NCBI GenBank assembly: GCA_944392295.1 | Contig: CALXWE010000004.1 | Span: 45,819-109,818, forward strand | Reading direction: 5' to 3' | DNA from: an uncultured Alphaproteobacteria bacterium | GTDB taxonomy: Bacteria > Pseudomonadota > Alphaproteobacteria > RF32 > CAG-239 | Length of the DNA stretch: 64,000 bases | Part shown: positions 7,018-41,920 of the stretch, piece after piece | Numbering within the stretch: position 1 is the stretch's first letter | Layout of the letters: the number at the start of each line of letters is the position of its first letter | Notes under the pieces: generated by a model | Databases searched by the model: none | Told to the model about the DNA's origin: nothing | Seen by the model: the letters and a program-made list of their open reading frames with translations, nothing else | Translations under genes and position numbers: made by a program

Positions 7018-7659
7018 TTATTTTGTATTTTTAAAATAAAATTGGAAATAGACTTGCTTTTTATCAGTTAATTCGAACTGTTGTTCACATATGTTATTTA
7101 TTTCGGAAATACTCATATTGGCAAAATCATATTGAGCGTTTACCAGGTTTATGTTTTTTCCTCCACCGGGTTGATTTCTTAAATATATAAAAGTAAATCC
7201 TTTAGGATTTTCTCTGTAAATGGGTTGTAATGCAAGTAGAATATTACGGCAATAAGAAATACCGATATCAATGCTTGGGAAGGTTATTGGAGTTTCGTAT
7301 TGAGGTTTGCCGTATATGGCTAGTACCGTATCGTGATTTAATGGGTGATTGTAAATATATATTGTACTATAAGTACCAAAGGCATCTTTCAGATACTCGT
7401 TTTGAACAGACATACCGTCGGGAATAGCATTTAACTTTTGATATATCGGAATCAAAGAATCATTTGGTTCGGCTGATATTTGATATTGATAGGTATAAAT
7501 CATATTAATTAATGATGAAATTTGCTCAGCTTGCTTATTTAGTTTATATTTCATCATCGCCTTAGAGTAACCGGCGATGGCACCGACGGATAGCACTCCA
7601 ATTATCGCCAGAACGCCGAGCATTTCGACCATCGAGCGTCCAAGTTCATTAAATTTCAT
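7018..7659 (-). CDS. Type IV pilin-like protein (class III signal peptide), variable family paralog A, short leader
   Basis: MKFNELG|RSMVEMLGVLAIIGVLSVGAIAGYSKAMMKYKLNKQAEQ. Gly at -1, Glu at +5, then a hydrophobic helix. Divergent C-terminal domain. SD GGAGG before the ATG. Confidence 0.75.
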   Translation of the reverse strand: MKFNELGRSMVEMLGVLAIIGVLSVGAIAGYSKAMMKYKLNKQAEQISSLINMIYTYQYQISAEPNDSLIPIYQKLNAIPDGMSVQNEYLKDAFGTYSTIYIYNHPLNHDTVLAIYGKPQYETPITFPSIDIGISYCRNILLALQPIYRENPKGFTFIYLRNQPGGGKNINLVNAQYDFANMSISEINNICEQQFELTDKKQVYFQFYFKNTK

Positions 7660-7777: not shown

Positions 7778-8407
7778 CTATTTCCAAGTAGCATAAAATA
7801 CGCATCCGCTTGATTCTTTTAAGCAACTATTACAGAGAGTATCAAAGTCTTCTAGAGTTAGACTTCTGATACATCTTTTGTTTTTAGATGTATCACAATA
7901 AGCGTCACCATGAAGAGTGTTTGATGAATATTCCGTATCTCCGTCTTCTGATTGACTTTGGATTTGTGAATAAGCGTTATACAATATTCCTGAATGTTCT
8001 TTGTATACATTAAGTAAGTTGCGGCATATTTCTAAACCGTTATTATCTGAACTAAATCGGTAGGCTAAACCGTAAACTGTTGGGTAGGCAAATACCCAAA
8101 TATCATTTTTAAAAATATCATTTAAATAGGTTGAGTTGCGGCGAGAGATTCCATCTGGGAGCATATTTAATTTATAAAGAGTTTCAGCAAAGTGCATGGC
8201 GGCGCCGTTGGTTGATGTATTAATTAACTTATGGCTTATTTCAAAAGCATTGATAAATAACATATTCATGCTTTCTGCTTGCTTATTTAGTTTATATTTC
8301 ATCATCGCCTTAGAGTAACCGGAGATGGCACCCACCGACAGTACGCCTATAATAGCCAAGACGCCGAGCATTTCGACCATCGAGCGTCCAAGTTCATTAA
8401 ATTTCAT
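7778..8407 (-). CDS. Type IV pilin-like protein, variable family paralog B, short leader
   Basis: Same leader and N-terminal helix as paralog A (MKFNELG|RSMVEMLGVLAIIGVLSVGAISGYSKAMMKYKLNKQAE). C-terminal Cys cluster CDTSKNKRC...CNSCLKESSGCVFY. Confidence 0.75.
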   Translation of the reverse strand: MKFNELGRSMVEMLGVLAIIGVLSVGAISGYSKAMMKYKLNKQAESMNMLFINAFEISHKLINTSTNGAAMHFAETLYKLNMLPDGISRRNSTYLNDIFKNDIWVFAYPTVYGLAYRFSSDNNGLEICRNLLNVYKEHSGILYNAYSQIQSQSEDGDTEYSSNTLHGDAYCDTSKNKRCIRSLTLEDFDTLCNSCLKESSGCVFYATWK

Positions 8408-8494: not shown

Positions 8495-9250
8495 CTAATT
8501 TTTGTAGATAACGATTTCTTTATTGGAATTCATTTTGCCTAAAGCTTGGTCTAGCTCTTGGTTTGCCGGAAACATTCCGCTTTGATGAAAAATTTGCAAC
8601 TCGTTGACGTATTGACTGTAACGATTGCGATATTTGGGCAAATCGGGATTTATACCTCCTGTCTGCGGTGCCGTAATATCGGCAGTTTGAACACTATTAT
8701 TTTCCGGATTAATACCGCCCGTATTGTTAATATTGTCGGCAAAAGTCGGTACCGTAACGGGCTGTGGATTATCATCTTCAATAAAATCGGTGGTGATGAC
8801 GGCTTGATTGTTATTGTTTGCGTCTTGGCTCGTTGCCGTTTGTGTAATTTCAGATTTGGCAGGTGGTGTATTTTGAACAACATTGCCGGTTGCTTGATTA
8901 GCGTGGCTGCCGGTGTTAGAATCCGCGCCGGTCGCGGCTGCGGTATTTGTAGTTTCGGCTTTGGCGTATACCGGGATATATCTGCCGTCAACGGCTATGT
9001 AATGAGAAATTTTGGGCTTTTTTACTCTTATCGGGGCTTGTCTGGTATTTTGCCCGTTATTGCCGGTGTTATTGTTTCGGCTCCTTATTGCCGAAGGGAG
9101 CTTGGGCTGGGGAAGGGCTATAGGCGGAAGTTTTTCGTAACGGGGTTGTAGCTCGTTTTTCGGAATAAAAAAGGCTTCTTGCGCCGCAACAAACCTGCCG
9201 GCAGCTATTATACCGGTCGTTAAAAGTAAAAAAAATACCGTCTTTTTCAT
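8495..9250 (-). CDS. Secreted low-complexity (Asn/Thr/Gln/Pro-rich) protein, function unknown
   Basis: Signal peptide MKKTVFFLLLTTGIIAAGRFVAAQ. Internal repeat TGGINP(E/D). The antisense ORFs on the + strand are compositional artefacts. Confidence 0.55.
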   Translation of the reverse strand: MKKTVFFLLLTTGIIAAGRFVAAQEAFFIPKNELQPRYEKLPPIALPQPKLPSAIRSRNNNTGNNGQNTRQAPIRVKKPKISHYIAVDGRYIPVYAKAETTNTAAATGADSNTGSHANQATGNVVQNTPPAKSEITQTATSQDANNNNQAVITTDFIEDDNPQPVTVPTFADNINNTGGINPENNSVQTADITAPQTGGINPDLPKYRNRYSQYVNELQIFHQSGMFPANQELDQALGKMNSNKEIVIYKN

Positions 9251-9293: not shown

Positions 9294-9983
9294 ATGAAAA
9301 AGTTTTATTGTATATTAATTTTTGCATTTTGTGGGGTGTTTTGCAACGCAGCTCTCGCGGCGCCGACACCGGATGAAGTGTGCGCTAAAATTGTTCGTAA
9401 ACCAAAAGTCGAACTATCTGTTTCTTACGGCAAGCTGAAATATGATTTTTCTAAAAGCGGACGCAGTCTTACCAGAATGCATATTAAACATTACGGGGGA
9501 GGCGTTCCGGCCGGAAAATATGTTAACGGCTTGGCTACTAACGATTTAACTACCGAATTGACGTTTAAATTAACCAAAAACACCCTTAATAACGGTATGA
9601 CTTGCGTGTATCCTTCCGTGGTGGAACTGAAAGTTAAAATCGATAACCCGACTATTTATCTTGCTAAAGAAATGGAAAAAAATTCTTGCATGTACAATAT
9701 TGCCATGCGTCATGAACAAACTCATCAGCAAATAAATGTTGAAGCGTTTGATTATTATTTGCCGATGATTAAAAGTGCTTTGTTAAGAGCTGTGCAAAAT
9801 TTTCCGCTCATGAGCGGAAAAGCAGATGTAAGTTTGGTGCTTGCCAAGAAGCGTTTTACCGACGAATATATGAACGAGGTTAACCCCGTACTTAATGAGT
9901 TACAAAACGAAATAAAAACCGAACAAGCCAAACTTGACAGCCAATCGCATTACGACTATGAAGCCGCACTTTGCGGGAACTAA
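9294..9983 (+). CDS. Secreted putative Zn-metallopeptidase (HExxH; DUF922-like by recall)
   Basis: Signal peptide ending ALAAP. HEQTH motif in NIAMRHEQTHQQ. Conserved Cys before the motif, as I recall for DUF922. No search done. Confidence 0.45.
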   Translation: MKKFYCILIFAFCGVFCNAALAAPTPDEVCAKIVRKPKVELSVSYGKLKYDFSKSGRSLTRMHIKHYGGGVPAGKYVNGLATNDLTTELTFKLTKNTLNNGMTCVYPSVVELKVKIDNPTIYLAKEMEKNSCMYNIAMRHEQTHQQINVEAFDYYLPMIKSALLRAVQNFPLMSGKADVSLVLAKKRFTDEYMNEVNPVLNELQNEIKTEQAKLDSQSHYDYEAALCGN

Positions 9984-12363: not shown

Positions 12364-13651
12364 TTATTTTGAAGTTTCTTCAAGAGCCTCGCGCGTGGCT
12401 TCTAAATAAGCATAACCATATTTTTGATCAGGCTCTAAATGCGCGCCTTCCGCCCATTCGTTCCAGGCATTGATAAACACAAATTGTTCGTTGTCTTTAT
12501 GGTTTTTGTGGGTCCAGCTGATAATGTCTTTCAGCCAAGTTTTGTAGTCTTGCGGTGTGTTTTCACAAATTTGGGCACCGTTATAACATTTGCGGGGAGT
12601 GTTGTCCCATGACGGAAAACAGCCCTTAAAAAATCTTAACCGAAGAGTCGTATAGGTAGCCTTTTTCTTTTACAAATTTTGCCATGTCATAGCATATGCC
12701 CTTAAATTTAGAATTAACGATTTTTTCCGATTTTTGATCAAGCATTTTGCTTAATCCGGCCGGAAAAAATTCTACCAGGGCATCAAAGCCATATTTGTTG
12801 ACGGTCTCGGCATATTCGCTTCGGGCTCCTTTGGCGGTGGTTATTAAATATATTCCTTCAAATCCCTCATTTCTGGCAATGCTTTGTATTTTATTTATGA
12901 AAGCCTTTAGGGTATCAAGAGGGTATTTTTGCGGCTGATACAAAATCAATAAGGGACGGTTATCAATTTTAATATAACGCGAATCTTTCATAAAGGGTAA
13001 AATATCTTGCATAAATTTTTCGGCATCACCATCAACAATTTCTTGCTTATAGAGTATTTCTTTTTCTTTACCGTTATCCCACAGCATTGACCAATCTTCG
13101 TTGGCCCAAAATAAGAAAAACGGCATATCCAAAGAGGTGTCGGCTAAAAATTTTTGAATGGGCTTTTCCATAATCTTGGTGCCGGAAAACCAGTAATAAT
13201 AAAAGCAAAAACCATATATACCGTATTGCTTGGCAAGCTCAATTTGGCGTTTCATAACATTAATGTTATCTAAATTATAATAGCCGACATCAATCGGAAT
13301 ATGAGGCTGCCAATGACCGACGTACTGCGGCACGGCTTTGGAGGTGTTTGACCATTCGCTAAAACCGCGGCCGAACCATTTAATGTTTTCTGCAAAATCA
13401 TGGTATTGCGGCAGGTAAAAGGCAATGGGTTTTACTTTATTTGAACCGTTATATAAATTGTTGCGGTCGCAGCCGATAAATAACGATTTATCAAGCTGAT
13501 GATTGAGCACATATTCTATATAAGCGTCTTTATCATTATCGTTTATGACTGCCGCTTGTATTTTTTCTTTATGACGGATTTTAATTTTTATGCCTAAAAA
13601 TTTAATAACGGTCAGCTTTTTTTCTTTATTGATACCAAACAGAGAAGACAT
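12364..13651 (-). pseudogene. WbsX-family (GH99-like / Glyco_tran_WbsX) gene interrupted by a frameshift in a homopolymer
   Basis: The track ORF 12626-13651 ends ...SSVKIF*. The next frame continues without a stop as (F)KGCFPSWDNTPRKCYNGAQICENTPQDYKTWLKDIISWTHKNHKDNEQFVFINAWNEWAEGAHLEPDQKYGYAYLEATREALEETSK*, with its stop at 12364-12366. That is the conserved C-terminal part of the family. The frames join if the run of six A (plus strand 12628-12633) is one base shorter. Confidence 0.7.
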
Positions 13652-15903: not shown

Positions 15904-16641
15904 ATGCCTGCTACAAAGTATAATATTGTTAAAAGCTCTAAGGCCGTTAAAACTCCGGCTTATGTTAAAGAGATATATGGTAAAATCTATGAAAATGAAA
16001 AATTGTGCCGCTTTTTAGATGATGATCGCATAGTTTCCGTTATGACATGGGGATTGCAAAATCGTTTGGTAGATGATGTGGTTAAAGAGATAAGTACTAA
16101 CAGTAAGGTGCTGCAAATAGGTTGCACTTTCGGTAAGCAAATCGGTGCGGTGGCCGAAAAAATCGGTGCTTACGGAAAGTATGTTATTGAAGATGTTTGT
16201 CCGCAACAAATAAATCGCTGCCGTAGTAAGGAAATTTATCAAAAAATAAGTTTCCAATCGCATGATGCGAGCCGGCCTCGCAGCGAAAAGTATGATACCG
16301 TTATTTGCTATATGTTATTGCATGAACTACCCCCTGTTACCAAAGCTAAAGTGATAAACAATGCCTTGGACAGTGTTGATGAAGGTGGAAAGGTTATATT
16401 TGTGGATTATCACAAACCAAGCAAATGGAATTTGTTGCGCTATATAATACAGCCTTTTAACCGTTTGTATCAACCGTTTGCCGAAAGTATGTGGAAATAC
16501 GGCATTGAAGACTATGCCAAAGATAAAGAGTGCTTTGTGTGGCGCAAAAAAACTTACGGTGGCAGAATGTATCAAAAATTGGTAGCAGTGCGGCAAATTC
16601 CGGCGTATGAAAAGCCTGTGGTAAAGCCCAGTTTTTATTAA
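15904..16641 (+). CDS. Class I SAM-dependent methyltransferase fold, RquA-like (rhodoquinone biosynthesis candidate)
   Basis: Atypical motif I VLQIGCTFGKQ. LLHELPP, VIFVDYHKPSKWNLL and LYQPFAESMW resemble my recollection of R. rubrum RquA (LLHE.P, VDYH.P..W, LEPFA..LW). Needs an HMM and phylogeny check. Confidence 0.5.
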   Translation: MPATKYNIVKSSKAVKTPAYVKEIYGKIYENEKLCRFLDDDRIVSVMTWGLQNRLVDDVVKEISTNSKVLQIGCTFGKQIGAVAEKIGAYGKYVIEDVCPQQINRCRSKEIYQKISFQSHDASRPRSEKYDTVICYMLLHELPPVTKAKVINNALDSVDEGGKVIFVDYHKPSKWNLLRYIIQPFNRLYQPFAESMWKYGIEDYAKDKECFVWRKKTYGGRMYQKLVAVRQIPAYEKPVVKPSFY

Positions 16642-16656
16642 CTCAAAATACAAAAT

Positions 16657-16689
16657 AAAAGCGGTACTTTTACAAAAGCACCGCTTTTA
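16657..16689. terminator. Bidirectional terminator between the RquA-like gene and the 1992-aa gene
   Basis: AAAAGCGGTACTTTT-ACA-AAAAGCACCGCTTTT, a 15-bp stem with one mismatch. Confidence 0.8.
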
Positions 16690-16691
16690 TT

Positions 16692-19600
16692 TTATTGGGT
16701 TATAGAATTGTTATTTTCAAGTTTCTTTTGGCGATACATACGTATCAACTTGGTTATGTAATTTTGTATCATTGAAACCATATATTTTTGATTATAGCTG
16801 TTGTGAATTTCATCATAATTATCTGTAGATGAAATGTTTTGCGTTTCTTTACCCTTTACAAAAAGTTTGATAAGAGCTTTTTTAAGTGCGGTCGGATTGG
16901 TGTTTTCTTGGGCTAAAAATACTTCTAAACCTTTTCCGGCAACACTGCGTGTTAGGGAATTGGGGTTACGGGACTTAAAGGTATCCGACATACCGCGAAT
17001 AACTTCCTTATCATTTTTACCGGAAAGCAATATCGCTCTTACAGCATTATATCCGGCTAAATCTTCGTTAGTCTTTGAGTTGTTAATGCTTTGTGCTATC
17101 TTAATAATGGCGGCAATTTTGGCGGCGTATTGCGATTTATAATTACCGCTTTTATATAACATCATATAGGTTGTTATCATATCGGGAGTTTCGCCTTCGC
17201 CCTTTTCGGCTACCGTAAAGTTAAAGGTATCGTATAAAAGACGTCCGAATTCATATCGGTCCTCAGGTGAAAATGGATGATTGTTTTCTTGTCTGTTAAT
17301 GGTATAGATAACCTCTTTCATGATGCCTTTTAAAATGGCCGTATCAACATTTTGACGTTTGATTAATTCTCCGATTGTCGGCATAAATTCCTTTGGTATA
17401 TCCGGACTTAAGGAATTTTTATCAAGTTCCTGAATGCGATCGGCCATTATTTTGAGTAATGGTATTTTAACTTCCGATGCTTGTTGAACTTTAATTATTT
17501 CTTTCTTGATTACGCTGCCTATTTTGGCGGGTAAATACTTAAAGGAATCGGCGTACATATTAAACAACATACTGCCTAAAAATTCTCTGTCCGAATACGA
17601 TAATAAATTTTGTTCTGAATAAAATAAACCGAGTTGTTTTATTCCTTCATCAACAAAACCGGTTATGATGCTTTCATCAATTGAGGTATTGCCGTCAGCT
17701 AAGGCGTTGTTTATACAATCTACCAAATCAATGATTTGAAAATCTTTATAAAAATCAATAACAGAGAGCAGTGTCTTTAGGCAATCTGATAAGTAGGATG
17801 AAGTCGTTTGTTTTAGCCGATAAGCATCTTCAATTTTGTTTCCGAGAGTAACGCTGAACTGACGGAATAAATTTCCTTCAAAATTACTGCTTACCATTTT
17901 CTCAAAAGTTTGGTATAAAAATTTTCCAAGCAATTTTTTATCTTGTGCCGAGGCATATACGGTGGCTCGTGCTCCACTATCAAAAATACAAATGGTATTA
18001 GTTTCCGGATTGAGGCGTATCTGTCGGCCAAATTCAGTATTGCTGACATTTCCCCCGCTTATTAATTTGCTTAATTTAAGACTGTTATAAATTTTATTTA
18101 CTACCTGTCTGTAACGTAAATTTTTAATTGTATCTAATGTGTTGCCGTAACTTCTTTCCATTTCTGCCCAAGTTTTACCGTAAGCTGTCCAATTGGCTAC
18201 TCTTAGCTTAATCTTATAACCATCAATTTCAAATTCACGGTGATTGTAGGTCTTTTGGGCCGCTTTTAGCTGCTCGTAGCCTACACTTAAATCGGTCTCA
18301 ATTATAACATCATGTCGGGTTTGAGTAATTATTTGTAGAAGACTATTGATGTTTTCGGATAACAGATTGTCGTGGAATAAGTCGTACAAAGTGTCTTCAA
18401 ATGCCTTAAATTCTTTTTCGGCAGAAGTTTTTGTAGCAGCATAAACGATTTTTACAACTTTGTCGCTTTCAAATGGTGATTTGTTTTTTTCAAGTGCACC
18501 TTTTTCTAAAGTTATAAAATACGGATTGGAGCTTAGGCTGCGTCCGAGCCAGATGTTTGAACTGTAATCAAGTTTGTTATCGTCATCTTGTGTATTATAA
18601 AAGTCAAGCCATTCAAACAATTCCCAACGAGCTGGGTGCTGCTCCTTAAACTTTATTTTTTGTAACTCTTTACGTATATATTTAGGCAGAGCTAAACAAA
18701 CTGTTGCCGATTGTGCTATACGTGTAGCAACCGGACCGGCATTTTCTAAAAAGATGCGGGTGCACTCTGCTAAATTTTTATTAGCATCGATGGTTGCCGG
18801 TGTCTCAAGGGCAGCGCTCATGGCTGCAGCCAGATATAATGTGCGCTCTGAATTTTTATGAGCTTTGATGTAGCTGTGTAAAATCTTACATACAATTTGT
18901 TTCTTAACATCATCAACAGCGGGTAACAAATGTTTACATATGCAGTTGAAAATGTGCTCCCAATCATTGGCCGAAATCCCTAAATTAGAAGCTTGGATAA
19001 CTTCACCTAAAATGACGGCACGGGCCTCTATTGGATATCCCCAAAATTCATGGTAAAGCATATCAAGAGTTTGCGGAGATATTCTTTCTTTACGAGAGCG
19101 TTGACTTTCTTGCAGTGCAGAATTTAAATGCTGGCTGTAGGCTTCACAATCCTTGTTACTACCGAATGTTAAAAGAAAGTCTATCAGATTATCGGCTTCC
19201 GTGCGGGATAAGGATATTAATGATTTAATTGTAGCAAATCCGGCAATTTGCAGCCTACATCCGTCATCTTCTTCGCTTATTTCCATAAAACTTGCAGGGT
19301 AGGGTTTTAACAGAAAAGCAAGTTTTTTTTGTGCTACAAATCTTTCTGCCAACAAGTGTGATAATTCAAGTCGGTCAGCCTGATTAACATTTTCATCAAT
19401 GTCTATGCCGAACATATTTTGTTCATAACTGTAGCCGTGCAGTTTTTGAGCATATACTTTTACTTTGTTGTAAAGGGATTCTGATTTGTCATCAATTTGT
19501 GAACCGCAGGAGCTAAATACCGATTGTACCCATAGCTGTTGATAACGCCTTCTTAAATCGGGGTCTAAAATACGGTGCTGCTTATTGATGAAAATATCGT

Positions 19601-22600
19601 AATAACTGTTTTTTAATTCAGGCTCGCGAATACTTTCTATCTCGGGAATAAAGTTTTCCAAAAATTGATGTTGTAAAACATAATCGTCGGCAAATCCGTT
19701 GACTTCAACCAATTTTTGATAGGCCTTAATTTTACCTATTAAATCGACATTGAATGCCGGGTTGTCTTGGATTAGCATATTTTTGAGTTGGTTGTCGCCA
19801 ATGTAGTCTAGTGTTTTGGCTATCTCAACCGAGGCAGCAAGAGCTTTTTGCGGGTTGTTTTCTTTTTTAATTTGTTTGATTATGTAGCTCAAACTTTCCG
19901 TATCATCAATAAGACCTTGCTCGCGAAGGCTGCGGTAGACCTTAACCATGCCCAAAATGTCGGCAGGATAATTTTCTCTTTTGATTAAAAACGGTTTGAG
20001 CTTGGCTCTTTGCAAATCCAGCAATTCATAAAGCGGATACTTTGATAATATCTCAAGCGGAAACAGATGCTTGTCATCGGTGATGATGTATAGCAGCATA
20101 CCGGTTCGGATATTGGCTGCCAAATCATCGGAAGATTGTAAAAGTTTTTCATCTTTAAAGTCGGCAAAATCAACCGGAAAATCTAGAGCCTTTCGAATGT
20201 GTTCGTAAAAGACCGGTTGATATTTTTGGAAATTAATATTCTCTAATGTTAAGTGTTTGTCTGCAGCCATTTCGTTAAGAGCAAAAACGGCAAGACGTTT
20301 TAATTCGGGAATGACAATGTTGTTTTTGCTTAACAGACCTAAATCGAGAAGTTTCTTAACGCCTACTTTTTCAAACAAGGTGTTGTAATATTTAATAAAT
20401 TGGGCTTCGCTGAAAAATTGTACGCTGCGTGGGGATTTAAGCGCATCTTTACAAAATTGCATAAATTCATATTCGATAGGTTGCAATGTGTTAAGCGACC
20501 AACCGTATTCTGCATGTTCAACGTCGTTGCAAACGTGGCTTAAGTAAGCTTCAAAAATTATGTTGTCGTTTTCAAGACTATACTTCGAATTAACAAATGC
20601 TAAAATCTCGGGACCGAGCAGTTTGTTAAATCGCAGCTCGTTAAATTTGCTGTAACCTTCGTAAATTTCCGAGGAAGTTTTGAGCATGTAAAAACTATCT
20701 TCTATAAAATTTTCAACAGGCTGTTTTTGCGGATAGGCAACGCTGGTATTATCTTTGAGTAAGGCATTGGCATAATCAAGGGATGATACTGCTTCTGACT
20801 TTGCTACATATTTGTATGGACCGGTGAGACCTTTAAGATGTAAGAGGTCTTTACTGCTTAAGTTTTTAATTTTTTGCGGATTTTGCGAAGCCGTACGAAT
20901 TATATCGTAGTACTGCTTAATCTCCTTGGCAAGCTGCCGATAAATGGTATCTTCCCTGGTTTGCAGTAAATCTTCAAGTTTGGCTTTATATTCTTTTGGT
21001 GAAAACGAATCGAGGATTTTGCCTTGATTGTCGCAAATATAAAACCAGCTCTTATCGGTAACATCAGCTGAAAATGGGGCTTCGCGGTAATTGCCGCGAT
21101 AGTGTATTATATAGCACCCTTTATATATTTCTTTGGCGGTTAATCCTAGGATTTTTTCATATACGGAAGATCGCAAAGCAATTAAGGGTATGGTCTTACC
21201 TTTATCAGAACCGTTTTGTTCCAGAGGTAATTTAGGAAATCTGTCCAGCTTAAATTTTTTAAACAGATAGCTATCGCTTTTAGGGTAAAATTTTAAATCT
21301 TGCGGTAAAAATGTAGTCGGGTTGTCGGAGCTGAAACAATCTCGGATATTGGAAAATTTTGACCATACACGACGCTGATATGCAGGGTCTTCTTGGTTGT
21401 GAAATACTTTTTCAAATTCTTCCAAAATGTTTCTTCCGGTAGGAAGTTTGCTGATATCAATATCTTCTATGCCGCTTAAAATACATCCGTTATAAATGCT
21501 TAAATAATCGCCGTCGGGAAGCTGGGTTTCTAAATCAAGCAATTTATCCCAGAACAAAACGTTGGGAAAAGTTCCCTCAGCAATGGCCCGCTTTTGATAC
21601 TCTTCAAGCAGATTGTTAAATCGGGAAACAGTTTCAAATGCATCATCAGGTACAATTTTTTGCGGAAAACTTTCTAAAATTGAAATACGATGCTCAAGAG
21701 ATTCCGGCAAAGGCGTATGAAAAATTTCTTGCCAACGTTTTTGACGCAACTCTTCGTGAGCCGGATTATAACTTTTAAATAATTCATAGTCGCTTTGAGA
21801 GACAATTTTACGTGCCATATTGCGTCTTAAGTCGGCGACATAACTTAAAATAACATCTTCAATTTGTACGGCTTGATTATGAGTTAATTCCTTTGAAGGC
21901 GGAATAAATTCTTTTAGAGCAGAAATTAATATATCTTGCTTTTCGATTAAACTAAAGGAATCGTACTTTTTACTTTCTAAAAGTTTACGCAGGCTTGATT
22001 TATAGTAACTTTTGTTTACCGAAGTTTTAAATTTAACCGGAATTTCGGTCGGCTCAAAAGCCGTAATGTCAATATCTTGTTTGTAATAGAAACTTTGTAA
22101 AGATTGAATCTTTAACTGTAAAGCATTAAGCATACTTTCATTATTAGGGTATTGTTTGAAAGCTTTTAAGATTTTTGCAGATAAAGAGTGATATTTTTGT
22201 GAGTTAAGAAAAATATGGGTTATTAAACTTTCGGCCTGGGCAATGTTATATTTGGCCTGAGCTAACATTTTAAGGGCGTTAAAGTCAGAAGAATCTCCTG
22301 CGCTGTAATCGGTGTTTTTGAAATAAGCAGGAATAAGTTTTAGCTCATAACTCATAATGAAGGCTAATTGGTCTTCATTTTGTACAATATTGATTAGACC
22401 TTTGGTTACGGTTAGGACAGGAATAAGGTTTTGCTTGCCGGCTTGATTTTTAATTTGCGGAACAACAAAGGAAATATTAGGTTCACTATCGTCGGTGATG
22501 CAGAAAAATACGGGATTTTGATCAAGATCAAATGAGGTGCCGAAAAGTCGGCGGGCTATACCCTCAAGATAAGAGCATCTTTCTTGTTCTTCTTGCAAAG

Positions 22601-22670
22601 TACCATCAATGATTTTAATCTGGTCATACAAATCAGAAGGTAAATTTCTTTTAATCTGTAAAACATCCAT
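16692..22670 (-). CDS. Giant orphan protein (1992 aa), mostly helical, with a degenerate ABC1/UbiB-like kinase-like module
   Basis: Uninterrupted 5.98-kb ORF with no signal peptide or TM segment evident. Residues ~1305-1600 (nt 17871-18758) loosely follow the ABC1 pattern (details in findings). Confidence 0.8.
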   Translation of the reverse strand: MDVLQIKRNLPSDLYDQIKIIDGTLQEEQERCSYLEGIARRLFGTSFDLDQNPVFFCITDDSEPNISFVVPQIKNQAGKQNLIPVLTVTKGLINIVQNEDQLAFIMSYELKLIPAYFKNTDYSAGDSSDFNALKMLAQAKYNIAQAESLITHIFLNSQKYHSLSAKILKAFKQYPNNESMLNALQLKIQSLQSFYYKQDIDITAFEPTEIPVKFKTSVNKSYYKSSLRKLLESKKYDSFSLIEKQDILISALKEFIPPSKELTHNQAVQIEDVILSYVADLRRNMARKIVSQSDYELFKSYNPAHEELRQKRWQEIFHTPLPESLEHRISILESFPQKIVPDDAFETVSRFNNLLEEYQKRAIAEGTFPNVLFWDKLLDLETQLPDGDYLSIYNGCILSGIEDIDISKLPTGRNILEEFEKVFHNQEDPAYQRRVWSKFSNIRDCFSSDNPTTFLPQDLKFYPKSDSYLFKKFKLDRFPKLPLEQNGSDKGKTIPLIALRSSVYEKILGLTAKEIYKGCYIIHYRGNYREAPFSADVTDKSWFYICDNQGKILDSFSPKEYKAKLEDLLQTREDTIYRQLAKEIKQYYDIIRTASQNPQKIKNLSSKDLLHLKGLTGPYKYVAKSEAVSSLDYANALLKDNTSVAYPQKQPVENFIEDSFYMLKTSSEIYEGYSKFNELRFNKLLGPEILAFVNSKYSLENDNIIFEAYLSHVCNDVEHAEYGWSLNTLQPIEYEFMQFCKDALKSPRSVQFFSEAQFIKYYNTLFEKVGVKKLLDLGLLSKNNIVIPELKRLAVFALNEMAADKHLTLENINFQKYQPVFYEHIRKALDFPVDFADFKDEKLLQSSDDLAANIRTGMLLYIITDDKHLFPLEILSKYPLYELLDLQRAKLKPFLIKRENYPADILGMVKVYRSLREQGLIDDTESLSYIIKQIKKENNPQKALAASVEIAKTLDYIGDNQLKNMLIQDNPAFNVDLIGKIKAYQKLVEVNGFADDYVLQHQFLENFIPEIESIREPELKNSYYDIFINKQHRILDPDLRRRYQQLWVQSVFSSCGSQIDDKSESLYNKVKVYAQKLHGYSYEQNMFGIDIDENVNQADRLELSHLLAERFVAQKKLAFLLKPYPASFMEISEEDDGCRLQIAGFATIKSLISLSRTEADNLIDFLLTFGSNKDCEAYSQHLNSALQESQRSRKERISPQTLDMLYHEFWGYPIEARAVILGEVIQASNLGISANDWEHIFNCICKHLLPAVDDVKKQIVCKILHSYIKAHKNSERTLYLAAAMSAALETPATIDANKNLAECTRIFLENAGPVATRIAQSATVCLALPKYIRKELQKIKFKEQHPARWELFEWLDFYNTQDDDNKLDYSSNIWLGRSLSSNPYFITLEKGALEKNKSPFESDKVVKIVYAATKTSAEKEFKAFEDTLYDLFHDNLLSENINSLLQIITQTRHDVIIETDLSVGYEQLKAAQKTYNHREFEIDGYKIKLRVANWTAYGKTWAEMERSYGNTLDTIKNLRYRQVVNKIYNSLKLSKLISGGNVSNTEFGRQIRLNPETNTICIFDSGARATVYASAQDKKLLGKFLYQTFEKMVSSNFEGNLFRQFSVTLGNKIEDAYRLKQTTSSYLSDCLKTLLSVIDFYKDFQIIDLVDCINNALADGNTSIDESIITGFVDEGIKQLGLFYSEQNLLSYSDREFLGSMLFNMYADSFKYLPAKIGSVIKKEIIKVQQASEVKIPLLKIMADRIQELDKNSLSPDIPKEFMPTIGELIKRQNVDTAILKGIMKEVIYTINRQENNHPFSPEDRYEFGRLLYDTFNFTVAEKGEGETPDMITTYMMLYKSGNYKSQYAAKIAAIIKIAQSINNSKTNEDLAGYNAVRAILLSGKNDKEVIRGMSDTFKSRNPNSLTRSVAGKGLEVFLAQENTNPTALKKALIKLFVKGKETQNISSTDNYDEIHNSYNQKYMVSMIQNYITKLIRMYRQKKLENNNSITQ

Positions 22671-22887
22671 ATCTCTATTCCTGAACCTATAATACGTTTA
22701 ATACTTATTGTTACATTCTAATACAAATTTGGTTTACAAATTATTACGATATTGTGAATTTTTTGCTTGAAGAATCGGAATTAGTAGTATAAATTTTAGC
22801 AGAATTGAAAGTTTTTTAATTTGGTTGCACATTTTTGTGTGCAGCTTGTGTTTAACTGAAATAGCTGCGAAAGGAGCTTAAATAACC

Positions 22888-25587
22888 ATGAGTAAATGGG
22901 TTTATACATTTGGAAACGGCAAAGCCGAAGGCGATGCCAGCATGCGTAATCTCCTCGGCGGTAAAGGTGCTAACCTTGCTGAAATGAACAAGGTTGGTTT
23001 GCCTGTTCCTCCGGGATTTACCGTAACAACTGAAGTTTGTACTTATTACTATGATAACAACAATACTTATCCGGCAGATTTGAAAGATCAGGTAAGAGAA
23101 GCCGTTGCCGGTGTTGAAAAAATTATGGGCAAAAAGTTTGCTGATGCCAATAATCCGTTGTTGTTCTCAGTTCGTTCCGGTGCAAGAGTTTCAATGCCTG
23201 GTATGATGGATACCGTTTTGAACTTGGGCTTAAACGATGAAACAGTTAAAGCTTTGGCTAAAGCTTCCGGCAGTGAAAGATTTGCTTACGACTCTTATCG
23301 CCGTTTCTTGCAAATGTTCTCCGACGTAGTTTTGGGTGCCGATTTGGATTTGTATGAAGAAGCTTTGGATAATATGAAAAAATCTAAAGGTTACAAGTCG
23401 GATACCGATTTAACTGCCGAAGATTTGAAAGAACTCGTTAAAGAATATAAAGAAATCGGTGCTAAATTAGGTAAAATCGTTCCGCAAGATCCTTGGGAAC
23501 AATTATGGGCAGGTATCGGTGCCGTATTTGGTTCTTGGATGTCGGCTCGTGCCATTACTTACCGTAAATTAAACAATATCCCCGGCGATTGGGGAACAGC
23601 CGTTAACGTTCAAACCATGGTATTTGGTAATGCCGGTGATGATTGTGCTACGGGTGTTTGCTTCTCTCGTGACCCTGCAACCGGTGAAAACGTATATTAC
23701 GGCGAATATTTAGTTAACGCTCAAGGTGAAGACGTTGTTGCCGGTATTCGTACTCCGCAACCGATGGGCAGTATCGGTGATGGCACTTCTTTGGAAGAAA
23801 AATGGCCTAACTTGTATAAAGAATTGGTTGATGCCAGAAATAATCTGGAAAATCACTACAAAGATATGCAGGATATGGAATTTACCATTGAACATGGTAA
23901 ACTTTGGATGTTGCAATGCCGTAACGGTAAAAGAACAGCTGCTGCTGCCGTTCGTATGGCCGTTGAAATGGTTGAAGAAGGTTTGCTCACCCCTGAGGAA
24001 GCTATTATGCGTGTAGGTGCTGACCAATTAGACCAATTGTTGCACCCGATGCTTGATCCTAAAGCTAAGAAAAATGTTATTGCTACCGGTTTGCCGGCTT
24101 CTCCTGGTGCTGCCGTTGGTCGTGCCGTATTTAACGCTGAAGATGCTGAAGCTTGGGCAGAAAAAGGTGAAAAAGTTATCTTGATCCGTAACGAAACCTC
24201 TCCGGAAGATATTGGCGGTATGCACGCTTCTCAAGGTGTTATTACTGCTCGCGGCGGTATGACTTCTCACGCAGCCGTTGTTGCTCGTGGTATGGGTACT
24301 CCTTGCGTTTCCGGTTCTAAAGATATTACAATCGATTATAAAACCAAAACTATGACCACTAAGTCTGGTGTTGTTGTTAAAGAAGGCGACTGGGTATCTT
24401 TGGATGGTGCTAAAGGTCAAATCATTGAAGGTCAAATTCCGACCGTTAAGGCTGATACCAATACCGGTAACTTCGGTAAATTGATGACTTGGGTTGATCA
24501 AATTCGTACTATGAAAGTTCGTGCTAACGCTGAAACTCCTAAAGATGCTCAACAAGCTCTTGATTTTGGTGCAGAAGGTATCGGTTTGGCTCGTACCGAA
24601 CATATGTTCTTCGATGCCGGTCGTATTGCTGATATGCGCGCTATGATTTTGGCTGATAACGAAGCTGGTCGTCGTGAGGCTTTGGCTCGTTTGCTGCCTT
24701 ATCAAAAACAAGACTTCAAAGACTTGTTCAAAATTATGAACGGTTTGCCGGTTACTATTCGTTTGTTGGATCCTCCGTTGCATGAATTCTTGCCTCATAC
24801 CGATCCGGAAATGAAGGAATTGGCCGATAAATTAGGTAAAACTTTGGAAGAAGTTAAAGTAAGAGCTAACGCTTTGCACGAATTGAACCCGATGTTGGGT
24901 CATCGTGGTTGCCGTTTGCCGATTACTTATCCTGAAATCGGTGAAATGCAAACTCGCGCTATCTTAGAAGCTGCTTTGGAATGCGAAGCTGAAGGAATTA
25001 AAGTTATTCCTGAAATCGAAGTTCCGTTAACAGGTTCTAAGAAAGAGTTGGATATTGTTAAAAACATTATCGATACAACTGCTGAAAAAGTATTTGCTGA
25101 AAAAGGTAAGAAGATTGATTACATCGTAGGTACCATGATTGAGTTGCCTCGTGCCGCTTTGATGGCTGAAGAAATTGCTGAATCTGCTGCATTCTTCGGT
25201 TTTGGTACAAACGACTTAACTCAAACCACTTTGGGTATGAGCCGTGATGATACCGGTGCCATTTTGGATGAATACCGCGCTAAAGGTGTTTATGTAGCTG
25301 ATCCGTTTGCTTCGATCGATGTTGACGGTGTTGGTAAATTGGTTCGTCGTGCCGCTGTTGAAGGCCGCGCTACCAATCCGGATTTACACTTAGGTGTTTG
25401 CGGTGAGCACGGTGGTGATCCTAAATCTATCGAATTCTTTGATGAAGTAGGTTTGGATTATGTTTCTTGCTCTCCGTTCCGTGTACCGGTTGCTCGTTTG
25501 GCTGCAGCTCAAGCTGCTGTTAAACACAAAGGCAAAAAGAAAGATGTCGATGGTGCATCTCACGGTTGCTGCAAAAAATGCGCTTAA
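22888..25587 (+). CDS. ppdK: Pyruvate, phosphate dikinase
   Basis: 899 aa. GGKGANLAEM, phosphohistidine loop GGMTSHAAVVARGMG, GLARTEHMF, and CGEHGGDP in the PEP-utilising C-terminal domain. Extra Lys/Cys-rich 21-aa tail. Confidence 0.97.
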   Translation: MSKWVYTFGNGKAEGDASMRNLLGGKGANLAEMNKVGLPVPPGFTVTTEVCTYYYDNNNTYPADLKDQVREAVAGVEKIMGKKFADANNPLLFSVRSGARVSMPGMMDTVLNLGLNDETVKALAKASGSERFAYDSYRRFLQMFSDVVLGADLDLYEEALDNMKKSKGYKSDTDLTAEDLKELVKEYKEIGAKLGKIVPQDPWEQLWAGIGAVFGSWMSARAITYRKLNNIPGDWGTAVNVQTMVFGNAGDDCATGVCFSRDPATGENVYYGEYLVNAQGEDVVAGIRTPQPMGSIGDGTSLEEKWPNLYKELVDARNNLENHYKDMQDMEFTIEHGKLWMLQCRNGKRTAAAAVRMAVEMVEEGLLTPEEAIMRVGADQLDQLLHPMLDPKAKKNVIATGLPASPGAAVGRAVFNAEDAEAWAEKGEKVILIRNETSPEDIGGMHASQGVITARGGMTSHAAVVARGMGTPCVSGSKDITIDYKTKTMTTKSGVVVKEGDWVSLDGAKGQIIEGQIPTVKADTNTGNFGKLMTWVDQIRTMKVRANAETPKDAQQALDFGAEGIGLARTEHMFFDAGRIADMRAMILADNEAGRREALARLLPYQKQDFKDLFKIMNGLPVTIRLLDPPLHEFLPHTDPEMKELADKLGKTLEEVKVRANALHELNPMLGHRGCRLPITYPEIGEMQTRAILEAALECEAEGIKVIPEIEVPLTGSKKELDIVKNIIDTTAEKVFAEKGKKIDYIVGTMIELPRAALMAEEIAESAAFFGFGTNDLTQTTLGMSRDDTGAILDEYRAKGVYVADPFASIDVDGVGKLVRRAAVEGRATNPDLHLGVCGEHGGDPKSIEFFDEVGLDYVSCSPFRVPVARLAAAQAAVKHKGKKKDVDGASHGCCKKCA

Positions 25588-26653: not shown

Positions 26654-28144
26654 ATGAAAAAGGCTGAGTTGGTAAATTTTTTAGAGGCGGAATATGCCGC
26701 TGCACATCGTTCTCCAAAAACTATAAAGCTGTTGGGGCATTCTTATGTTATCCCTTGCGTGTATTTGACCGAATATCAAGATCCAGAAAAATCTTTTATG
26801 AATGATTTTTTTGAGTTAATGCGTAAAGATTATCTGCATTATAAACGTTGTAATGAAGAACCTCAGTATGTTTGTTTGGCGCTCGGTGATAAAAGTATAA
26901 GACTGGTGGTGCCTTATGCCTTACGCTATAAAAATCATACCCCAAATGAAATTGCCGATAAAATCTTAAAAAGAGCCAGTGATAAATATTGGCGGGCGGT
27001 TAGATTATCATCGGAGATGGCCGAAATTTATCCTGACAGACCGTTCAAAACATTTATTAATTTGGCTAACTTAAAAGAAATGCGTAACGCCTTAAGATTG
27101 CACCGTCTCAAAGAAGCTCGCGATAGAACTGCCTATATTACGAAAAAGGTTGGCACGTTCTTGGCTAAAAATGCTCGTAAAGTTACGAATAATATTAAAC
27201 ATATGGATGTTGACCGCCTTAAGGCCAAAGCTAAAACCTGGGCGGTGGTAGCGGTGCTTGGAGCAACCATTAATGCCGCTGTTTATACTGCTTTCCAAAT
27301 TAAAGATAAATCAGAACAAAAAAAAGAAGTACAAGCTAAAGACCCTTTGGGGCATATCAGAATGTTTTCACGTTGTCATGATGCCATTAAGGTTAGTTTG
27401 GCTTTTGCCGAAAATTTTGCTCCTAAAGCTTTTAAAGACGGTGTAGGTGTACCGACTATCGGTTACGATTGTACTTATTATTTGGATGAAAACGGTAAGG
27501 GAAGCCGTGCAACGTCGCCGGTGAAAATAGGAGATAATATTACTAAAGAAGAAGCCAATGTTCAAAAAGAGCGCTACTTACAGTTTGAAATCTTAAATCA
27601 AATTCAAGAAAATGTTAAAGTCCCGTTAGATGAAGCAACAATGATTGCTACATGTAATTTTGCTTATGTGTTGGGCTCAACGAACTTTAGGAATTCAGAG
27701 TATCTAAAAGCCTTAAATGAGGGTAAAAAAGGTGAAGAGCTCGTTAAATATTTAACCGGATATCGTCAGCAAAAGGGCTTGCTACCAAGATTTTATTTTA
27801 TGGGTGCTTTGCTTAACGGTAAATTAAAAACTTCCGATTTTTTGAATTTAACGGCAGAAGGTTGTTATAATCTTAGTACCAAAGATGTGTGCGTCTATAA
27901 AGGAAATAGAATAAAACTTGATGGTGAAGGGTTTGCCGAGTTTGATTATGATAAGTTAGAGCAAAATCTTGTAAAATCTAACAGAGCACGACGCAGTAAA
28001 GCTTGCGGAAATAAAAAGTGTCCGCCGGTTAAAGATATTTTACCGCAATCGGTAATTGACGGTGTTTTACAAATGGAAAAATCATCAAATTATACGGGCT
28101 TATTGTCGGAAAGTTTGTTGAATCTAAATGCCAATTCGAGATAA
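26654..28144 (+). CDS. Membrane-anchored protein with C-terminal GH24 (phage-type) lysozyme-like domain
   Basis: TM segment WAVVAVLGATINAAVYTAFQI. Downstream, AENFAPKAFKDGVGVPTIGYDCT...GDNITKEEANVQKERYL...VPLDEATMIATCNFAYVLG...LLPRFYFMGALL aligns by eye with P22/lambda-type lysozymes (EGxxLKAYxDxxGxxTIGxGHT...). The putative Glu, Asp and Thr are retained. Confidence 0.55.
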   Translation: MKKAELVNFLEAEYAAAHRSPKTIKLLGHSYVIPCVYLTEYQDPEKSFMNDFFELMRKDYLHYKRCNEEPQYVCLALGDKSIRLVVPYALRYKNHTPNEIADKILKRASDKYWRAVRLSSEMAEIYPDRPFKTFINLANLKEMRNALRLHRLKEARDRTAYITKKVGTFLAKNARKVTNNIKHMDVDRLKAKAKTWAVVAVLGATINAAVYTAFQIKDKSEQKKEVQAKDPLGHIRMFSRCHDAIKVSLAFAENFAPKAFKDGVGVPTIGYDCTYYLDENGKGSRATSPVKIGDNITKEEANVQKERYLQFEILNQIQENVKVPLDEATMIATCNFAYVLGSTNFRNSEYLKALNEGKKGEELVKYLTGYRQQKGLLPRFYFMGALLNGKLKTSDFLNLTAEGCYNLSTKDVCVYKGNRIKLDGEGFAEFDYDKLEQNLVKSNRARRSKACGNKKCPPVKDILPQSVIDGVLQMEKSSNYTGLLSESLLNLNANSR

Positions 28145-36277: not shown

Positions 36278-37069
36278 TTATTTTGTAAAATCAAACTGTA
36301 TCCACTGGTAAAAGTAAAGACTACCGTTATTTACAAACTCATTGTAACTTTTTTGGCAGGCTTCATAAAAATCGTGGGTTGTCATATTAGGTAGGCAAGG
36401 GGATGTAGATTTACAATTTTGCCGATAATAGTAATAATATGGTCGCTCAATCCAAACGGTTGTCAAAGATGAAGTTTCTGGTTGTATGGATTTTAACATC
36501 TGAAACGTATTAACACAAGCATCTACGGAGCTTTGTGCTTTGTTATAATGAATAATAAATGCAAGATTATTTCCATTTTTTCCTACATATAATTCTATGC
36601 TTATACCAAGAGAGGTTTTGACAACGTTTTTGCTTATATAAGATACACCATCAGGTAATGATTTTAATGTATTCAGTAACCCGGCGACATCTGTTCCCGA
36701 AGATGTTTTTTCGTAATATTTTTGTGAAATAGTCGATGTAACAGCGGTCAGCAGTTCCGAAATTTGTTGGGTGTGTTTATTTAATTTATATTTTGTCATC
36801 GCCTTAGAGTAGCCGGATATAGCGCCAACCGATAGAATGCCAATGATAGCAAGAACACCAAGCATTTCGACCATACTTCTTCCGGCGGAAAGTTTGTATA
36901 AGTGCTCATCTAAAGCCGTTTTACGGTACTGAAAAAAATTCATGTACTTTTTGTGTACACTAAAATTTTTTTCGCCCCTAGAAACGACTTTATCTAAACT
37001 CTTCTCCAAACTTTCGGGAAAAAAGGGGCTGATTTTTACGAATTGGCATAAAAATTGATAAAATTTCAT
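36278..37069 (-). CDS. Type IV pilin-like protein, variable family paralog D, 63-aa leader
   Basis: MKFYQFLCQFVKIS[33-aa insert]RKTALDEHLYKLSAG|RSMVEMLGVLAIIGILSVGAISGYSKAMTKYKLNKHTQQ. The same cassette precedes the MKF start. Confidence 0.7.
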   Translation of the reverse strand: MKFYQFLCQFVKISPFFPESLEKSLDKVVSRGEKNFSVHKKYMNFFQYRKTALDEHLYKLSAGRSMVEMLGVLAIIGILSVGAISGYSKAMTKYKLNKHTQQISELLTAVTSTISQKYYEKTSSGTDVAGLLNTLKSLPDGVSYISKNVVKTSLGISIELYVGKNGNNLAFIIHYNKAQSSVDACVNTFQMLKSIQPETSSLTTVWIERPYYYYYRQNCKSTSPCLPNMTTHDFYEACQKSYNEFVNNGSLYFYQWIQFDFTK

Positions 37070-41735: not shown

Positions 41736-41920
41736 AAACAAAAAAATTAAAGAGTTATGATAATTTATTATACCTATGTATTTATATCACATCTTTTATT
41801 ATGCGCAAGTTTTAAATGTACATTAGATATAGATTCTGTGTTTGTTTTTTATTGTTGATTTTCTTGACTTTGCAACGCAAAGTCAGTACCTTGCCGGATG
41901 TTATTAAAAGGAGAATCGTG

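Follow-up and report, generated by a model that had tools for sequence, protein, structure and literature searches.

The 64,000-nucleotide stretch of DNA analyzed here (hereafter the window) comes from an uncultured bacterium of the alphaproteobacterial lineage RF32 (GenBank contig CALXWE010000004.1, positions 45,819 to 109,818), and its longest open reading frame (ORF) by far is a complete minus-strand gene coding for a protein of 1,992 residues (Table 1). This giant protein combines an N-terminal domain of the M48 metallopeptidase fold with a UbiB/ABC1-type kinase-like domain, both with their catalytic residues replaced, and it is probably a double pseudoenzyme. A preliminary description, made from the sequence alone, had singled it out as the largest gene in the window and as one whose product has neither a signal peptide nor a transmembrane segment; the ORF list and the hydropathy profile agree on both points, and every peptide quoted in that description is found in its place (RIAQ 1317–1320, KVVKIVYA 1404–1411, IETD 1457–1460, VSNTEFGRQ 1542–1550, FDSG 1563–1566 and SYELKL 107–112). 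The N-terminus, preceded by an AGGA 9 nt upstream of the ATG, is conserved among homologues. Since it is hydrophilic and the Kyte–Doolittle 19-residue mean peaks at 1.06, the protein has no obvious signal peptide or membrane segment.

Table 1. Features of the giant gene and its flanks (coordinates are those of the window; residues are those of the 1,992-residue protein)
Feature	Coordinates	Strand	Basis or remark
Complete gene, 1,992-aa protein	16692..22670	-	ORF list and translation; stop TAA at 16692-16694
M48-metallopeptidase-like domain, predicted catalytically dead, residues ~6-205	22056..22655	-	HMM, Pfam of relatives, PDB profile, Foldseek
HExxH zinc-helix relic, S107-Y-E-L-K-L112 (LAFIMSYELKLI)	22335..22352	-	Alignments; family consensus G-H-E-L-x-H
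Other M48 motif positions, both lost	22131..22301	-	HMM alignments
Mostly alpha-helical scaffold with few small beta elements, residues 206-974	19749..22055	-	AF2 model, conservation profile
Family-conserved helical region upstream of kinase-like domain, residues 975-1294	18789..19748	-	Profile core, conservation
UbiB/ABC1-type atypical kinase-like domain, degenerate active site, residues 1295-1600	17871..18788	-	
KxGQ position, R1317-I-A-Q1320 (family K-L-G-Q)	18711..18722	-	K 49/52, Q 51/52; aligned with UbiB KFGQ
Degenerate catalytic loop, V1542-S-N-T-E-F-G-R-Q1550	18021..18047	-	Family F-D-x-D-R-H-G-x-Q; UbiB F-H-A-D-x-H-P-G-N
DFG equivalent, F1563-D-S-G1566	17973..17984	-	D1564 and G1566 invariant in family
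C-terminal all-helical region, residues 1601-1992	16695..17870	-	Model, conservation; conserved only among closer relatives
Three-fold motif copies	17904-17942, 17553-17591, 17223-17261	-	Pattern match
Hairpin, 20-bp stem then T-run	16650..16695	-	Starts at last codon of giant gene
Divergent intergenic region common to giant gene and pyruvate,phosphate dikinase (PPDK) gene (22888..25587, +)	22671..22887	.	ORF map

Searches with the giant protein itself are uninformative: scans of Pfam and NCBIfam returned zero matches even at E ≤ 10, and neither the single protein in a sequence search of the PDB nor the profile of its close clade against the PDB recovered anything. A word-index homology search retrieved 27 full-length homologues of 52–100% identity, all from metagenomes or metagenome-assembled genomes (MAGs). 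An exhaustive HMMER search, in which a profile of residues 800–1992 was run against 1.84 billion cluster representatives, recovered 480 proteins at E ≤ 1e-3, 385 of them at E ≤ 1e-10 and 109 at E ≤ 1e-30. This contradicts the earlier label of an orphan. The members thus found are mostly 1,400–2,900 residues long, some of the related clusters contain hundreds of member sequences, and the core common to nearly all of the 480 corresponds to window residues ~975–1680 (profile positions ~175–880). The few that carry a name are called M48 family metallopeptidase or metalloprotease [Alphaproteobacteria bacterium], and the taxonomy of the distant members accordingly rests on three such labels only. 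Among genome contigs, a scan with the single sequence gave no locus, and an alignment-based scan recovered only six MAG species, all of the clade of the window protein (hereafter the gut clade, ≥46% identity); the matches in the genome collection are labelled uncultured human-gut Alphaproteobacteria. One locus with a 52%-identical homologue (L007, CAVBCV010000032.1) is labelled 'Lachnospiraceae bacterium', with the other matches labelled Alphaproteobacteria or Proteobacteria, and is probably a mis-binned contig.

These giant proteins, in which an M48 zinc protease is fused to a UbiB-type kinase-like ATPase, form a large, uncharacterized family. Its canonical layout runs from the M48 metallopeptidase through ~1,000 residues of mostly α-helical scaffold to a conserved helical region, the UbiB/ABC1-type atypical kinase-like (ATPase) domain and a variable helical C-terminus. 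No Pfam, NCBIfam or PADLOC model covers its conserved centre. In one relative of 2,864 residues (P0141), an extra glutamine-synthetase catalytic domain (PF00120, E = 4e-18) occupies residues 1709–1890, directly after the UbiB-like domain, so that variable 'cargo' may be what the family carries towards its C-terminus.

The window protein's own UbiB-like domain was recognized through this family. The consensus of 52 family sequences reads LENxGPAxxKLGQAxxSxPxxPxxIRxEL...LGSASY...VxxxLRP in its first half and ETDxxxGxxQ...FDxDRHGxQ...FDTGAM in its second. An hhalign comparison of the family profile (A3) with Escherichia coli UbiB, whose sequence was verified as PF03109 at E = 2.4e-77, gave a probability of 96.1% and E = 2.8e-9 over 265 columns, spanning UbiB residues 48–331 and window residues 1295–1587. 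The paired segments (window/UbiB) are GPVATRIAQ/GPVWIKFGQ, KVVKIVYA/EVVIKVIRP, IIETD/LIDEL, VSNTEFGRQ/FHADMHPGN, IFDSG/GIDCG and QDKKLLGKFLY/EDKRYLAENFI. In an AlphaFold model of residues 800–1992 (pLDDT 77.7, about 82 in the UbiB-like domain; pTM 0.67), Foldseek returned eight matches at E ≤ 1e-3, and for this predicted structure all eight are COQ8A/ADCK3 or the mycobacterial MSMEG_1954 (E = 1.5e-5 to 7e-4), with Rv3197 ranking just below them. Residues 1295–1600 are therefore a UbiB/ABC1-type kinase-like domain, and the degenerate ABC1/UbiB-like core, with its order of motifs, that had been proposed from the sequence is upheld by both the profile and the structural comparison. A search with the PF03109 HMM, which the preliminary description had put forward as a check, fared differently: the window protein gives no match even at E ≤ 10, nor do eight other relatives that were scanned (four at E ≤ 0.01 and three at E ≤ 10), and it is a distant member, P0087, that passes the gathering score (23.8 versus 22.9 bits, E = 2.9e-5).

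UbiB/ABC1 proteins are ancient and widespread. These atypical kinase-like ATPases (UbiB, ABC1 and COQ8/ADCK3; PF03109; PDB 4PED, 5I35, 7UDP) place a bilobal protein-kinase-like fold behind a KxGQ helical extension, as does the giant protein, and in both the motifs follow in the order KxGQ, nucleotide loop, β3 strand, αC Glu, catalytic loop, DFG and C-lobe helix, the last being EDKRYLAENF in UbiB and QDKKLLGKFLY here. There are also differences: the giant protein shows only ~10–16% identity to the UbiB family, fails PF03109 and has no transmembrane anchor, and its UbiB-like domain is embedded in a 1,992-residue chain together with an M48 domain and, unlike UbiB/COQ8, has no consistent link to quinone genes. 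The mycobacterial ABC1-family proteins Rv3197 and MSMEG_1954 (PDB 5YJZ, 7CYR) are stand-alone proteins of ~400–450 residues with their nucleotide-site residues intact and, unlike the window protein, with neither a protease domain nor a giant scaffold.

The N-terminal domain is related in the same indirect manner to the M48 peptidases. Against Pfam PF01435 the window protein gives no match; distant relatives match Peptidase_M48 at residues ~50–150, and precomputed annotation assigns PF01435 to relatives at 34–42% identity but to none of the ≥46%-identity clade. Residues 6–315 of the window protein match an HMM built solely on N-terminal sequences of distant relatives (149 bits, E = 1.2e-47), and the family profile finds the M48 structures 3c37 (E = 3.4e-17) and BepA (E = 1.6e-9) in the PDB. 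For an AF2 model of residues 1–800 (pLDDT 83, pTM 0.71), the top eight Foldseek matches of the predicted structure are again BepA and 3c37 (probability 0.75–1.0, E = 3e-3 to 4e-2). Together these matches identify the decayed HExxH peptidase helix suspected at LAFIMSYELKLI as a true M48 relic. Predicted structures were another check that the preliminary description had called for, and they place the kinase-like region closest to the UbiB family and the N-terminus closest to M48.

Of 113 long relatives, 97 carry HExxH at the corresponding place, mostly at residues ~85–170 and in two further in. Its first His is missing throughout the gut clade, and the lineage of the window protein, P0002 and P0003 has lost the second as well. 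Of the two downstream motifs, the family gEExxAD, whose Glu corresponds to the third zinc ligand of M48 structures, has become GD--SSD in the window protein (residues 124–131), and HPxxxxR (vHPsdenR) has become QYPNNESM (residues 172–180). The N-terminal ~200 residues thus share the fold of the M48 zinc metallopeptidases (PF01435; BepA/YfgC, 6AIT and 6SAR; Geobacter Q74D82, 3C37; HtpX) and have homologous counterparts in relatives with HExxH and the downstream Glu and His-Pro motifs, but, unlike in those enzymes, all metal-ligand and catalytic positions are substituted. Characterized M48 enzymes work in the periplasm or at membranes; the window protein, unlike them, lacks both a signal peptide and a membrane anchor, and ~1,800 residues follow its M48 domain.

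These profile, structure and family results are independent of one another and bear directly on the possibility of a lineage-specific helical orphan whose likeness to kinases and to HExxH peptidases comes from chance matches to their motifs. That the sequence of the giant protein itself finds nothing in Pfam, NCBIfam or the PDB is what such a coincidence would predict; the family evidence already refutes it, and we regard it as extremely improbable.

The active site of the UbiB-like domain has decayed along with that of the protease. Lost in the window protein are the catalytic-loop Asp (T1545) and His (F1547), each present in 45 of the 52 family sequences, together with the family residues at D1543 and R1546; in KxGQ the Lys is replaced by Arg and the Gly by Ala, the Gln being kept; and the Ala-rich nucleotide loop, L-G-S-A-S-Y in the family and L-A-S-A-S-I in UbiB, reads L-S-S-N-P-Y. 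Retained are Q1320, the β3 K1407, the αC E1458, Q1550 (at the Asn position) and D1564/G1566, with D1564 and E1458 invariant across the family. KxGQ has been described as invariant in the UbiB family, and in COQ8, whose activity is that of an unorthodox ATPase, its Gln holds a water proposed as the ATPase nucleophile (10.1101/149823). As the window protein lacks the defining catalytic features of both M48 and UbiB, we file it as a pseudo-member of each.

The two losses coincide phyletically. Among the family members in hand of at least 1,300 residues, 109 have both HExxH and the catalytic D/H intact; 53 have lost both, and all of these belong to the gut clade (the window protein, P0002–P0048 and P0211–P0215). 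A further 15 have lost HExxH and kept the catalytic D/H, and none shows the reverse combination, the two apparent cases being truncated. The double loss is thus confined to the gut clade, the nearest outgroup (P0049 and P0201–P0210, 34–42% identity) having kept both sites. The residues now found at the catalytic-loop positions vary by subclade (T-E-F, A-E-F, R-Q-L, N-Q-L and E-R-F), a pattern that fits relaxed constraint at these positions after an early loss of function.

The gene as a whole has been maintained. Against a 99%-identical variant it shows 135.7 synonymous and 29.3 non-synonymous differences (dN/dS ~0.05); against a 79% homologue pS is saturated at ~0.78 and pN is 0.13, with the lowest pN (0.085) in the decayed M48 part, and the UbiB-like domain is likewise under purifying selection. 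In at least six MAG species the homologues have kept both their full length and their synteny, the gene has a probable terminator of its own, adjacency to PPDK is kept down to relatives of 41–46% identity, and an outgroup member with both sites intact (P0206) occupies the same locus beside PPDK. In the 99%-identical strain variant (P0029, locus L019), nearly all differences fall in 20322–21497 (residues ~392–783), with dS at 0.355 in residues 221–970 and ≤0.025 elsewhere, which suggests a recombination tract inside the giant gene.

Conservation within the gut clade is concentrated away from the former catalytic centres. Scaffold residues 206–974 are poorly conserved beyond the close clade, and in the 1–800 model Foldseek found no PDB fold match outside the M48/BepA part. 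The most conserved blocks of the clade include residues 1020–1080 (YYDIFINKQHRI..RRRYQQLWVQSVF..CGSQIDDKS), which is also the most conserved block of the helical region at 975–1294, and residues 1700–1740 and 1780–1860 of the C-terminal region; all three lie outside the former catalytic centres. Residues 975–1294 are modelled with pLDDT >90 and have no family or PDB sequence match. Outside the UbiB-like domain, the model of residues 800–1992 gives only generic α-solenoid matches.

The C-terminal region also bears on a claim of repeated helical modules. The motif D[KR]xx[LF]G[KSR]xL[YF]xx[FY] does have exactly three copies in the protein, at residues 1577, 1694 and 1804, and thus at the ~110-residue spacing first noted; none of 20,000 shuffles contained it, for a pattern that was defined after the fact. 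In the predicted structure each copy begins a helix of ~20 residues; the first is the UbiB C-lobe helix after DFG, aligned with EDKRYLAENF of UbiB, and the other two lie in the C-terminal helical region. A repeat of entire modules is weakly supported: in an internal repeat test by profile comparison of the ~110-residue segments, similarity is confined to the motif helix (14–26 residues; best pair 56% probability, E = 1e-4), and the three segments could not be demonstrated to be duplicated modules. Duplication of whole ~110-residue modules is possible.

The combination of lost catalytic residues, a maintained gene and conserved blocks outside the catalytic centres points to a non-catalytic role, and we place at about 0.7 the probability that the giant protein is a double pseudoenzyme working via binding or scaffolding. 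In the gut clade both catalytic centres have decayed, yet strong purifying selection acts on the protein, which has kept its full length and its synteny; the large soluble scaffold would bind partners, rather than carry out proteolysis or ATP turnover, and a nucleotide or hydrophobic ligand might possibly be held in the retained UbiB pocket. The analysis shows what the domains are, that catalytic residues have been replaced, in which clade this happened and how selection acts on the gene; that activity has been lost and that binding or scaffolding has taken its place is inferred from these results.

Several points weigh against this interpretation. Pseudoenzymes sometimes stay active through relocated residues, and the loss of activity is read here from sequence alone; the KxGQ Gln, water-holding in COQ8 (10.1101/149823), and the DFG Asp are retained; and the β3 Lys position is variable even among the 'intact' relatives (K18/R12/S11 of 52), so the chemistry of the family may differ from that of canonical UbiB. 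Both structural models were built on an alignment of 49–52 sequences (pLDDT 78 and 83), and Foldseek gives the N-terminal one modest E-values (3e-3 to 4e-2). The same observations feed the proposal that the protein is still an enzyme, with the UbiB-like domain hydrolysing ATP through its retained residues or with other residues having taken over catalysis. Q1320, K1407, E1458, Q1550 and D1564 are both retained and conserved, the ATPase of the UbiB family uses the KxGQ Gln to position water (10.1101/149823), and the domain is under purifying selection. This proposal has to contend with the replacement of an Asp and a His (each in 45/52 of the family) by different residues from subclade to subclade (T/F, A/F, R/L, N/L, E/F), with the changes of the KxGQ Lys to Arg and Gly to Ala and of the Ala-rich GSAS to SSNP, and with the replacement of every M48 zinc-ligand position; we consider it unlikely.

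A double pseudoenzyme has partial precedents. In bacterial pseudoenzymes such as the Clostridioides difficile pseudoproteases CspA/CspC and the inactive metallopeptidase homologues (PMC11266112), the fold has likewise been retained under selection after catalytic loss, with a function presumed to be exerted through binding or regulation, as we propose for the giant protein. Unlike these, the giant protein has two unrelated enzyme domains decayed in one polypeptide and one lineage.

The intact members of the family, in turn, might constitute a so far unrecognized type of giant ATP-dependent machine, in which a UbiB-type ATPase, known elsewhere as a module that handles hydrophobic lipids at membranes, would be mechanically coupled to the M48 protease via the ~1,000-residue solenoid and of which the gut clade would represent a double-dead version acting in binding or scaffolding only. 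We offer this as a speculative extension that is rather improbable in this full form.

The window otherwise encodes housekeeping functions (among them SecA, PPDK, Pta/AckA, EF-Tu, LepA, and rRNA and tRNA methyltransferases), together with a response regulator of the NarL type and a Lon-like protease, and the paralogue check found no second family member in it or in any fetched locus. The promoter of the giant gene presumably lies within the intergenic region shared with PPDK, where a consensus scan found no σ70-like site on the minus strand; the hairpin at the other end is probably a bidirectional terminator between the giant gene and a convergent RquA-like gene. Distant relatives are monocistronic and stand in varied housekeeping contexts, some of them near ankyrin-repeat proteins or autotransporters.

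The relative P0080, on locus L012 (1133–16670), has a phage-type integrase on one side and NikA-like, HTH_17 and AAA_15/AAA_21 genes on the other, and a TraG/TrwB-like coupling protein is encoded close by. It appears to be part of a mobile or integrative element, in contrast to the gut-clade gene, which is inherited vertically; a tblastn search of P0080 against PLSDB plasmids gave no match. A place in defence islands is unsupported, as PADLOC matched neither the giant protein nor three relatives.

The preliminary description speculated on an effector, and the giant protein might be a secreted effector or toxin-like protein, catalytically dead or not, directed at host or competitor cells. Its being giant, soluble and helical with no signal peptide or transmembrane segment would suit that role, as would the ankyrin-repeat proteins and autotransporters encoded in the genomes of distant members, the integrase, NikA-like gene and coupling protein that adjoin one member, and eukaryote-like features of the window genome, including a ubiquitin-domain protein. 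The ankyrin-repeat, autotransporter and island contexts are compatible with host-associated lifestyles but do not thereby demonstrate an effector role. No secretion system or recognizable secretion signal was found within the window, the C-terminal tail is unconserved within the clade, there are zero PADLOC matches, and the gene, single-copy and beside PPDK down to 41–46% identity, looks like a vertically inherited core gene; we therefore judge an effector role quite unlikely.

The ubiquitin-domain protein (41816–43072, +) is an observation in its own right: a signal-peptide-like segment is followed by a near-eukaryotic ubiquitin (PF00240, E = 2.6e-24) that has no C-terminal LRLRGG, and then by ~290 residues ending in ...NFAYDF, which resembles the terminus of an outer-membrane β-barrel or autotransporter. 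Its product may be a surface-displayed or secreted bacterial ubiquitin.

The convergent neighbour on the other side (15904–16641, +) scores as the rhodoquinone-biosynthesis methyltransferase RquA (NF038261, 211 bits versus a cutoff of 175); RquA, PPDK, Pta and AckA in the window point to an anaerobic, fumarate-respiring lifestyle of this gut alphaproteobacterium. With a UbiB-type fold next to RquA, and with that adjacency kept in the ≥53%-identity clade, one may ask whether the giant protein is a quinone-pathway accessory factor, like UbiB/COQ8, handling ubiquinone or rhodoquinone intermediates together with its neighbour. The two genes, however, are convergent with a strong terminator between them, the adjacency is absent from the 46% subclade, the outgroup and the distant relatives, and the giant protein has no membrane anchor and has lost its catalytic residues in exactly the clade that shows the adjacency. 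We reject a functional link to RquA because the adjacency is limited to one subclade of convergent genes separated by a terminator; any quinone link of the giant protein is unlikely, and an accessory-factor role of this kind is very improbable. No quinone-gene neighbour recurred across the examined loci.

Other genes of the window are mentioned for completeness. An ORF for a WbsX-type glycosyltransferase (12626–13651, -) codes for 341 residues in the window and in locus L004 and for 428 in L001 and L002, which carry an identical giant protein; the shorter form may be a strain-level truncation or frameshift. A 496-residue protein (26654–28144, +), kept at the same position in related MAGs, contains a phage-lysozyme domain (PF00959, E = 9.5e-15) and weakly matches BgtA, the endolysin of a gene-transfer agent. 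The Lon-like protease (48330–50765, -) is an 811-residue LonB/LonC-like AAA+ protein (PF13654, PF20436, PF20437, Lon_C), and most of the Pfam models that it matches take their names from archaeal LonB or LonC. Conserved ORFs of 200–260 residues with no Pfam match lie at 7018–7659, 7778–8407, 8495–9250, 9294–9983 and 36278–37069, the first four being syntenic in related MAGs.

Taken separately, the M48 and UbiB/ABC1 folds are of known kinds; their combination in a soluble family of ~2,000 residues is absent from the literature searched, where no description of an M48–UbiB fusion or of the giant-protein family was found. The mechanism of UbiB/ABC1 proteins is debated: they have been proposed to act as ATPases, as lipid chaperones or in a decarboxylation step, and the literature treats UbiB/ABC1 as quinone-linked and COQ8 as membrane-bound. 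Against this background stand ~480 sequence clusters of soluble proteins of ~2,000 residues that combine a UbiB-type domain with an M48 protease and that public annotation names only 'M48 family metallopeptidase'. If the intact members were indeed coupled machines, the poorly understood UbiB fold would gain a new soluble, non-quinone context, and the gut-clade proteins would provide a built-in control separating catalytic from non-catalytic roles. A protein that word-index and Pfam searches would call an orphan could be placed by an exhaustive profile search and structure prediction, and the result should be useful to specialists in UbiB and in pseudoenzymes as well as for the annotation of gut Alphaproteobacteria. 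In these common but uncultured bacteria of the human gut, the clade of the giant protein would offer a clean natural example of double pseudoenzyme evolution.

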